Source: Vicinamibacteria bacterium (GTDB lineage Bacteria > Acidobacteriota > Vicinamibacteria > Marinacidobacterales > Marinacidobacteraceae). From it: 64,000 nucleotides of DNA. The notes under the pieces were generated by a model. The model did not search any database, was not told the DNA's origin, and saw only the letters and a list, made by a program, of their open reading frames with translations. Positions within the stretch are counted from its first letter, which is position 1, and every line of letters starts with the position of its first letter. The translations under genes were made by a program, and so were the position numbers. Location: contig OY821641.1 in NCBI GenBank assembly GCA_963555995.3, positions 992,001 through 1,056,000 on the forward strand. Direction: 5' to 3'. Shown piece by piece: positions 32,621 through 34,988 of the stretch.

Positions 32621-33967
32621 TCAGTCCGCTACCACCGGCAGCTTCGGGAACGTCTGCCACCCGCCGCGCGTGAAGTCCGGGAAATCCATCGGCCGGCTGC
32701 GGTCCGCCACCGAGCGCTCGCTGAGGTCGGTGACCGCGGAGAGCGCCGCCGCGTCATAGACGTTCGTCTCGGTCGGCAGCCCCTCCTGGAGGCAGCGGAT
32801 CAGCCGGTAGTCCTCGAGGTAGTCCATCCGCCCGTGCCCGAGCTCCTCGCCGGGGCTCGCGACATTGCGCCACAGCGGATGCGCGTACTCCTCGTACCAG
32901 GTCTCGGCGTCGTCCCAGCGGTGCGACTCGCTTCGGCCCTCCACGTACACCCGGTTCGGATAGCCCTGGAAGATGCCCCGCGTCCCCTGGACCAGGTTGA
33001 TGCGGCTGTAGGGACGCGGGAGGTTCGTGTCGTGGACCACGGTGATCGTGCGGCCGAGCGCCGTCTTGATCAGGCTCAGGTTCACGTCGCCGAGCGTGAA
33101 CTTCTCGGCCCGCTGGGGCGCGCCCTCGGGGAAGTGTTCCCGGGCGTAGTCCTGAAGGCCGCGCGAGGGCCCGCTCATCGAGACCAGGTAGTCGAAGCGG
33201 TCTCCGCGGCCGATGTCCATGCAGTTCGCCACCGGGCCGAGCCCGTGCGTTGGGTAGAGGTTGGCATTCCGCACCCGTGAGTGCGCCCGTCGCCAGAGCC
33301 CCTCGCCACGGTTCGCGAACTTCACCTCGCGGAGGTCGTGGAGGTAGCCGCCCTCGGCGTGGAGGACCTCGCCGAAGACCCCCAGCCGGACCAGGTGGAA
33401 GACCATCATTTCCCAGCGGCCGTAGTTGCAGTTCTCCATCATCACGCAGTGCCGGCCGGTCCGCTCCGCGGTCTCGACGAGTTCCCAGCACTCGTCAATG
33501 GTGGTCGCCGCCGGCACCTCGGTGGCGGCGTGCTTGCCGTTCTCCATCGCCGCAACGCATACCGGGACGTGAAAGCGCCAGGGCGTGGCGGTGAAGACGA
33601 GGTCGAGTTCTTCCTCGGCGCACATCCGCTCGTAGTCCCGTTCTCCCCTGGTGTAGAGCGTCGGGTCAGGTCCCCCCGCCTCCCGGATGAAGTCCCGCGC
33701 CCGCTCGGCGTTCTCGGGCCGAATGTCGCAGACGGCCCGGATCTCGACTCCCGGCGACGCCTGGTGCACCGCCAGCAGGTTACGGACGTGGACCGTCCCC
33801 ATGCCGCCGACGCCCACGAAGCCGATGCGGACGTTCGGGATCTTCGGCGCGGCCAGCAGGTTCGCCGGGGCCGTCTGGACCCCCGCGAGGGCGGGGCCGG
33901 CGGCCGCCGCGCCCGCTCCGGCCGCCAGGAGTTGCCTTCGGGTCAGTCCGGATCGCTTCTCGGTCAT
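32621..33967 (-). CDS. Tat-exported Gfo/Idh/MocA protein, GH109 (alpha-N-acetylgalactosaminidase-like)
   Basis: TRRQLL Tat motif; GVGGMG, ATPW, EVPAA, MMENCNY, LYPTHGLGP. Confidence 0.85.
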   Translation of the reverse strand: MTEKRSGLTRRQLLAAGAGAAAAGPALAGVQTAPANLLAAPKIPNVRIGFVGVGGMGTVHVRNLLAVHQASPGVEIRAVCDIRPENAERARDFIREAGGPDPTLYTRGERDYERMCAEEELDLVFTATPWRFHVPVCVAAMENGKHAATEVPAATTIDECWELVETAERTGRHCVMMENCNYGRWEMMVFHLVRLGVFGEVLHAEGGYLHDLREVKFANRGEGLWRRAHSRVRNANLYPTHGLGPVANCMDIGRGDRFDYLVSMSGPSRGLQDYAREHFPEGAPQRAEKFTLGDVNLSLIKTALGRTITVVHDTNLPRPYSRINLVQGTRGIFQGYPNRVYVEGRSESHRWDDAETWYEEYAHPLWRNVASPGEELGHGRMDYLEDYRLIRCLQEGLPTETNVYDAAALSAVTDLSERSVADRSRPMDFPDFTRGGWQTFPKLPVVAD

Positions 33968-34647
33968 GGTGTTGCCTCCTGACGGGGGACCGGATCCCAG
34001 AAGGAACCCGTCAGTCCCACCCCGGCGAAGATAGCGCGGGCCTCCCCGGGAGTGCGGCGGGGCGCCTCCGGGTCGAGCCGGTTCCCGTACCAGCCCCGCG
34101 AGAGGCGCCAGAGCTGCGGCACCGGCACCGCCGGCCCCGGTTTGACCCCCCGATCCCGGCACCAGGCCCCCAGATCGTCTTCCGACCGGAAGAACAGCAT
34201 GTTCGCTCAGGTGAAGACGATGTCGTCCCACCAGCGCACCGCGGGCACCAGCGAGTGGAAGAGCCAGTCGCTCGGTTCCGGGCCGTTCTCCGTGACTTTG
34301 AGCCGCAACGGTTCTTCCGAGTTCGCGCAGTGCGACCGGACCGTCCCGCCCCGTCCGAGTGCGGCCGGGATGCCGAGGGCGTCCCACGCGCAGTTCGCGT
34401 AATAGTGGACTCCTGCCGACTCGAAGGTGTGGTCGGTGGGCACCCCGGAGAACGGGTTCGCCATCCGGATGGAGACCCCGTCCTCGCCGGTCACGATCGC
34501 CCGGCCCTCGCGGAGACGCACCCAGGTCCGTTGGACGGAAGGGACATCCACTCCCAGCCGTTCAGCCACGGTGGCGGGCGTGGGAGCGATGCCGGTTTCC
34601 GCGAAGAACTCCAGGATCGCGGTCCTTGTCTGCGTCTCCAGCGGCAC
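33964..34647 (-). CDS. MerB (organomercurial lyase)-like protein with in-frame TGA, probable selenoprotein (227 aa)
   Basis: ORFs 34207-34827 and 33964-34200 share one frame: ..MANPFS..YANCAWDALGI..WWDDIVFT-TGA-ANMLFFRSE..; GAGGAG RBS before GTG 34647. Confidence 0.8.
34178..34193 (-). promoter_or_regulatory. candidate bacterial SECIS hairpin
   Basis: 13 nt after the TGA (34207-34209): TCTTCC-GGTC-GGAAGA, with G at the start of the loop. Confidence 0.65.
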
Positions 34648-34658
34648 GCCGCTTCTCC

Positions 34659-34988
34659 TCAGAGCCGGCGGGCGTAGAGGAAGGACGCGACGAGACCTCC
34701 TCCGAGCGGAACCAGGTTGCCGGCCACGAGCCACGGCTCCAAACGGTCCGGCGTCCATTCCGGAAAGGCCGACGACAGCGCCAGGTTGAAGGCAAACGAC
34801 ACGGCGGCGGCGGCGATCATGAACCAACCCGCCGCCCGATTGGCCGCGTACCAGACCTCTGGAGAGGAAAGGGTCTCCGACGTCCGGAAACCGTAAATCC
34901 GGTTGGGAGGGACCATGCCCAGGGCCATCGGGGCGGACGCCGCCAAGACGATCAACGGAATGCCGTAGATGACCAGATCTTGTTCCAC
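34659..34988 (-). CDS. SdpI family membrane protein
   Basis: VPPNRIYGFRT..W..ANRAAG; three TM segments. Confidence 0.75.
   Translation of the reverse strand: MEQDLVIYGIPLIVLAASAPMALGMVPPNRIYGFRTSETLSSPEVWYAANRAAGWFMIAAAAVSFAFNLALSSAFPEWTPDRLEPWLVAGNLVPLGGGLVASFLYARRL

Follow-up and report, generated by a model that had tools for sequence, protein, structure and literature searches.

The window, a stretch of 64,000 nucleotides (nt) from a Vicinamibacteria bacterium (assembly GCA_963555995.3, contig OY821641.1, positions 992,001 to 1,056,000), carries on its minus strand a gene for a predicted MerB-fold protein in which, judged from sequence comparison, the UGA at codon 147 is almost certainly read as selenocysteine (Sec). 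The original prediction, that Sec takes the place of the second catalytic Cys, is upheld: the codon aligns with MerB Cys159, 63 of 81 homologues spanning the column have Cys there, the genome encodes the Sec machinery and a covarying hairpin follows the codon. None of the three outcomes named beforehand as refuting it was observed. The interpretation of the interrupted frame as a genuine hidden selenoprotein gene is well supported.

The merB-like gene (33964..34647; the features of this gene and the one downstream are all on the minus strand) is a single frame of 227 codons running from a GTG start at 34647 to a terminal TGA at 33964-33966. The only internal TGA is codon 147 at 34207-34209. 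The open reading frame (ORF) entries 34207..34827 and 33964..34200, which had been proposed to be one frame interrupted by this TGA, are the two halves of the frame, and the motifs named for it, YANCAWDA and WWDDIVFT followed by the TGA and ANMLFFRSE, are both present exactly as claimed. A Shine-Dalgarno-like GAGGAG (34655..34660) is situated 7 nt 5' of the start codon and overlaps the stop of the upstream SdpI-family ORF. An assembly error at the TGA had been named as a possible objection; contigs of four public runs, representing at most three samples from one study that is possibly the source itself, cover the codon and agree with TGA, with no alternative letter or indel.

The read-through protein belongs to the MerB superfamily, with 100.1 bits against Pfam PF03243 (gathering threshold 27) over residues 66-188. 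MerB is defined by four residues, Cys96, Asp99, Cys117 and Cys159, according to the part of PMC8261052 consulted. In a sequence alignment to solved MerB chains (E. coli numbering), Cys86 (34390..34392) corresponds to Cys96, the first metal ligand, Asp89 (34381..34383) to Asp99, the proton shuttle in MerB, and Cys107 (34327..34329) to Cys117, which is structural in MerB. These residues are kept in 80, 80 and 79 of 80 loci, respectively. The position of Cys159 is occupied by the TGA and the putative Sec. PDB entries 3F0O/3F2F/3F2G and 1S6L represent MerB (EC 4.99.1.2), and 5C17 is MerB2 of B. megaterium. A single-sequence AlphaFold model was poor (predicted local distance difference test, pLDDT, 40) and was set aside; the model used was built from an alignment of 86 rows with Cys substituted for Sec and has a pLDDT of 96.5. 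All 11 Foldseek matches at E <= 0.001 are MerB chains (best E 3e-11, template modelling score, TM, about 0.6). In VIA-align, MerB2 (Z 18.7, root mean square deviation (rmsd) 3.1, 187 aligned residues) and MerB (Z 15.0, rmsd 4.2, 184 residues) outrank the winged-helix hits, which cover residues 1-62. A MerB fold is predicted from this model. Residues 1-62 (34462..34647) make up an N-terminal winged-helix domain (LexA 3k2z, Z 10.2 over 62 residues) resembling LexA/DtxR DNA-binding domains (Z 8-10); MerB has a matching N-terminal part, and MerB2 5c17 is aligned from residue 1 of the model. Model residues past about 195 (ranges end at 192-196) are not aligned to MerB. A C-terminal extension of residues ~193-219 (33991..34071) is conserved in the TGA family and its Cys-form relatives and is unaligned to solved MerB.

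The TGA is conserved across a broad range of bacteria. Relatives are encoded in 440 GTDB stretches, from which 80 loci were kept, picked by similarity, which favours the TGA clade. TGA is found at the MerB Cys159 column in all 80 (L090 settled by extraction guided by a hidden Markov model) and in 116 of 117 loci having the site. By record title the carriers belong to Acidobacteriota, Chloroflexota, Verrucomicrobiota, Gemmatimonadota, Eisenbacteria, Planctomycetota and other phyla. Matches in protein databases number 4,660, and 118 of the 120 best stop at the residue directly before the TGA. The survey of the column comprised the query, P0049 and 150 cluster representatives. In this alignment check, which had been proposed, Cys dominates among the 81 spanning homologues (63), with Trp in only four, other residues in nine and gaps in five; several of the 81 have garbled tails. 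The four with Trp are P0049, which is nested in the TGA clade, P0131, P0147 and P0216. The TGA column is the end of 66 homologues, 60 of which end on Thr. Read-through lengths are about 219-227 amino acids, and the Cys homologues are mostly of 220-240 amino acids and aligned end to end. A protein search with the C-terminal region was uninformative: of 40 candidates, it returned none but the protein of the window itself. In the FastTree phylogeny (150 N-terminal columns, 119 rows, no SaoL sequence) the window protein is part of a clade of TGA forms, with Cys and TGA forms intermixed deeper and canonical MerB outside. The backbone has weak support and no order of Sec/Cys changes is claimed.

The hairpin UCUUCC-GGUC-GGAAGA (34178..34193, loop 34184-34187) covers nt +17 to +32 from the U of the UGA. 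It matches exactly the earlier description of a hairpin TCTTCC-GGTC-GGAAGA beginning 13 nt after the TGA, with a loop 19 nt after it that starts with G. Taken alone the hairpin is weak against chance (z = -1.80, 11 of 200 shuffles as stable over 60 nt, other lengths weaker). A genome-wide scan for TGA plus hairpin was dropped as evidence for being too permissive, with a loose pattern of TGA and GG-loop hairpin occurring at 936 of 36,505 open-flanked TGAs in the source genome, which has roughly 70% GC. The hairpin stands above chance because it is conserved across genomes. The codons under it are nearly fixed in 107 carrier genes, a set that includes two apparent duplicate genomes and G073: Arg is CGG in 99%, Ser TCG in 99%, Glu GAA in 92% and Phe TTC in 100%, compared with 30%, 35%, 34% and 77% elsewhere in the same genes. 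Over 57 sequences, hand-picked for diversity and including seven from clades with two Sec codons, pairing across the six pairs is 99.1%, and double-sided changes number 13, compared with 0.8 in shuffled and 0-6 in slid controls. The closing pair varies between C-G, U-A, A-U and U-G. The sole Cys-form locus is without such a stem. The 6-bp stem and GGUC loop just 3' of the UGA, the synonymous constraint and the compensatory pairs together characterize a Sec insertion sequence (SECIS)-like element.

The source genome (G000) has selA, selB and selD above cut-offs and a tRNA-Sec of 69.7 bits (cut-off 47); the search for selA, selB, selC and selD that had been suggested as a check finds all of them. 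The selD match (L011, C1:2910735-2911673, minus strand) lies inside a frame that stays open over 1,450 codons, possibly a fusion, and the match itself has no TGA interruption. Among the first 50 of the 80 carrier genomes, selA is found in 49. In a sample of 401 genomes of the phylum, all 28 single-TGA carriers have selA (27 of 27 without G073, which is flagged as unpublished). The overall frequency of selA in this sample is 297 of 401 (74%), and the bacterial average of about a quarter is below this figure. The co-occurrence is supportive and not decisive because related genomes are not independent cases and selA is frequent in the sample anyway.

Haft & Gwadz (bioRxiv 10.1101/2022.07.06.499078, in the part considered) ask of a selenoprotein family at least 10 candidates with TGA at a conserved Cys/Sec column, similarity through the U and lengths that agree with those of Cys homologues; all three of their criteria hold for the family with the motif WWDDIVFTU, below called the TU family. 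Six other TGA read-through candidates with downstream hairpins were found in the source genome: CYCXC, AhpD/CMD, two AhpC/Prx, OsmC and rhodanese (L137-L142; C1:1335270 (-), 3698142 (+), 1619913 (+), 1621024 (+), 1183397 (-) and 1885614 (-)). The CYCXC candidate exceeds its selenoprotein cut-off, and all six match family types listed as selenoproteins in the part of PMC13188914 covered. Two of the six share a loop starting with GGUC with the merB-like hairpin, and the AhpC and OsmC candidate genes are about 1 kb apart. The TGA scan also encountered near-identical units arrayed at a period of 80 nt (C1:751868-752428).

Two explanations of the TGA dispense with Sec. In one, translation ends at the TGA as a true stop, and a separate start at an ATG 10 nt downstream yields the C-terminal part, giving a split protein of two chains. 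Of 116 TGA loci, 104 have an ATG at this position and one has a GTG, and gene callers list both halves (the ORF track and P0140). One metagenome-assembled genome of the Verrucomicrobiae (G021, locus L036) has the TGA form and a perfect hairpin, yet no selA, selB or tRNA-Sec was found in it, which weighs against Sec; this case is either an incomplete assembly or an orphaned gene. The split model is nevertheless very improbable, as the stop falls on the catalytic Cys column and the split protein would lose a catalytic ligand, 11 of the 116 loci have neither ATG nor GTG there, the spacing always keeps the frame and the internal ATG has no Shine-Dalgarno sequence before it. Hairpin covariation and selA co-occurrence would also be left unexplained. 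Reading of the TGA as Trp, or a sequencing error or pseudogene lesion, is scarcely credible. The Trp rows mentioned above count against Sec; they may stem from gene callers translating TGA under another code, or reflect true changes to TGG. In the source genome no stop is commoner than TGA (785 of 1,234 long coding frames), so TGA does not mean Trp in it, and its only tRNA with a UCA anticodon is the tRNA-Sec. The conservation of TGA in the 80 genomes and the agreement of the four runs also contradict an error.

In MerB, Cys96 and Cys159 are the ligands of R-Hg, and the carbon receives its proton from Asp99 (PMC10114901, in the part seen). Because all three positions are kept in the merB-like protein, with Sec at that of the second ligand, the same chemistry with a stronger metal ligand would be the simplest reading. 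By this analogy the protein would be a stand-alone enzyme cleaving or trapping organometals at a Cys/Sec/Asp site, a reading that is modestly favoured. SelB-tRNA(Sec) almost certainly binds the GGUC-loop hairpin and inserts Sec at codon 147. Cys86 and Sec147 would then take up R-M+ (R-Hg+ or a different soft organometal), coordination by two chalcogens would weaken the M-C bond and Asp89 would protonate the leaving carbon; for these three steps of MerB-type chemistry the chances are put at even or marginally above. Sec, ionised at the pH of the cell, is a very tight ligand of Hg. Because it is ionised, the proton would come from water and not from the second ligand. Because the Sec-Hg bond is tight, product release would be slower, which fits a scavenger without MerA and also keeps alive the alternative of a metal sink. 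Since MerA is mostly missing, the metal set free would remain bound to the selenolate or be handed to cell thiols, and the role would be that of a high-affinity, low-flux scavenger and not of a mer-operon resistance enzyme. The wider proposal, that these selenoenzymes form a large, unannotated family which, without depending on MerA, demethylates organomercury or another organometal or traps it for good at the Cys/Sec site, with sister clades having Sec at both metal ligands, is a tentative and somewhat doubtful extension of the same analogy.

The neighbours of the gene are a flavin oxidoreductase, an SdpI-family gene and, downstream, a GH109 (Gfo-Idh-MocA) gene (32621..33967) whose ATG overlaps the merB-like stop (ATGA), with AGGAGG at 33975-33980. 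This set recurs in only 13-14 of 81 loci, all of them close relatives, and the GH109 linkage is retained only among the closest. Part of the earlier description of the context as unusual stands, as no mer genes are found among the window neighbours; the run of genes described as spdH-like, sdpI and GH109, taken as a hint to the substrate, says little on this point because it is kept only among the closest relatives. The sole mer gene (MerF-MerA) among 120 flanking proteins adjoins a canonical Cys MerB control. Downstream of GH109, a Fic-domain gene (PF02661, 31112-32617, plus strand) is shared by just 4 of 81 loci, which suggests a variable insertion. No hgcA was found in five genomes, the source genome and four carriers with two Sec codons.

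Several observations weigh against an organometal-cleaving function. The protein fails the cut-offs for canonical MerB (49.1 of 200 bits for NF033555, 57.6 of 193 for NF009710). Identity to canonical MerB is about 20-25%, and Phe158 and Cys160 of MerB are replaced by Thr and Ala. In Pfam searches with 120 of 180 dereplicated flanking ORFs from more distant loci, called by a rough heuristic, no family recurs meaningfully. MerA is above its cut-off in 3 of 57 genomes, one of these being the canonical-MerB control and the others two of the 56 Sec-form carriers, one of which also has canonical merB. The best MerA match in the source genome, which is 93% complete, reaches 373 of 454 bits and is below the cut-off. 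With MerA mostly missing, a lyase would therefore release Hg(II) without a reductase, and the very strong Se-Hg bond could block turnover. Two MerA-like matches below the cut-off contain an in-frame TGA: G019 C153:342-1694 (minus strand) has one TGA, and G177 C73:14789-16153 (minus strand), which adjoins two canonical-type merB genes, has one TGA and one TAG.

The missing MerA agrees with a selenoprotein that is not a lyase at all, but a Cys/Sec soft-metal sink, chaperone or sensor (Hg, Cu, Ag, Au), the winged-helix domain possibly making it a regulator. The stand-alone gene with random neighbours and the LexA/DtxR-type match of the N-terminal domain point the same way, and MerB is described as binding other metals, its D99S mutant as binding Cu, in the parts of PMC8261052 and PMC10114901 covered. 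This explanation is unlikely, given that Asp89, the catalytic acid that distinguishes the lyase from metal-binding variants, is kept in every one of the 80 loci. MerB itself has the matching N-terminal part, so regulation is not implied, and a sensor would be without a conserved target gene nearby. A shade less probable is that the MerB site has been repurposed for thiol/selenol redox chemistry, with a Cys86-Sec147 selenenylsulfide cycle serving for example peroxide or disulfide reduction. The kept Asp and the buried structural Cys fit a lyase site, no thioredoxin or reductase is conserved among the neighbours and the literature covered, seen in part, reports no redox activity of a MerB fold; for the redox explanation speak the other read-through candidates of the source genome, which are mostly redox folds, and the view that most prokaryotic selenoproteins are redox enzymes (PMC13188914, in part).

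Two TGA codons, at the columns of Cys96 and Cys159, occur in seven MerB-fold genes from six genomes of the phylum; these genes form two FastTree clades. They are L125:1495-2172, L126:2329-2985, L129:3119-3745 and L130:2999-3592 on the plus strand, and L127:2675-3298, L128:2923-3540 and L131:2996-3622 on the minus strand. The second site keeps the same hairpin, five of the genes having a U-A or U-G closing pair. Five were scored, and all are below the MerB and SaoL cut-offs. Five of the six genomes have selA, and G342 has selB and tRNA-Sec.

With these genes the family supplies natural Cys/Cys, Cys/Sec and Sec/Sec MerB sites, a direct probe of the part of selenium in Hg-C protonolysis and product release. 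In NCBIfam no model covers the TU family, and the merB-like gene is likely present as truncated halves in thousands of database entries. Surveys of merB that require Cys96, Asp99, Cys117 and Cys159 (PMC8261052, in part) would drop the TU genes. Should the TU proteins cleave methylmercury, many environmental bacteria would have more potential for demethylation than is counted; the family would be invisible to current inventories of mercury cycling and could be a missing biological methylmercury sink.

The concept of a Sec-containing MerB is already published with SaoL, which limits the novelty; on sequence, the TU family is distinct and is neither SaoL nor canonical MerB. In the literature covered no description of the TU family was found, only SaoL-type entries; PMC12013261, PMC9879109 and preprint supplements were outside this scope and could mention the family. 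Within the parts of the sources considered, the only MerB-like entry among the 119 prokaryotic selenoprotein families inventoried in 2026 (PMC13188914) is of the CU type, and PMC9312934 gives the same accession. The deep-Sep supplement (PMC12013277) has two MerB-like representatives, both with CU. MerB is absent from the main text of BSepDB (PMC13326102) and from one supplementary file of it that is perhaps incomplete, and the portion of PMC7435645 seen contains an unexplained table label, 'Organic mercuric lyase MerB2', with no sequence.

SaoL (NF040728) is described, in the part of bioRxiv 10.1101/2022.07.06.499078 covered, as a MerB-like selenoprotein with Cys99, Asp102 and Sec162. Both SaoL and the TU family have the MerB fold (PF03243), keep the first Cys and the Asp, carry Sec (putative in the TU family) where MerB has Cys159 and are cut at the UGA in databases. 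The merB-like protein differs in scoring 33.5 bits against NF040728, for which the cut-off is 140, and in the T-U motif; SaoL has C-U (or CC), with ASCU in the published representatives (PMC12013277). Of 107 carrier genes of the TU family, 104 have Thr before the U, and the others Asn or Ser. SaoL marks a nine-gene locus in 52 anaerobes (same preprint), whereas the TU family has no conserved locus. None of the Sao families is found among 11 flanking proteins scanned against NCBIfam, and SaoC was not found genome-wide in the source genome by a search that had no positive control. The carriers of the TU family include, unlike those of SaoL, Acidobacteriota, Verrucomicrobiota, Chloroflexota and Gemmatimonadota by record title, and the TU family has the C-terminal extension. 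Canonical MerB differs in having Cys159 in place of the putative Sec, Phe158 and Cys160 in place of Thr and Ala, scores above both NCBIfam cut-offs and a mer operon, of which the TU gene has none around it, with MerA in only the two carriers given above. Common to both are the predicted fold and the equivalents of Cys96, Asp99 and Cys117.

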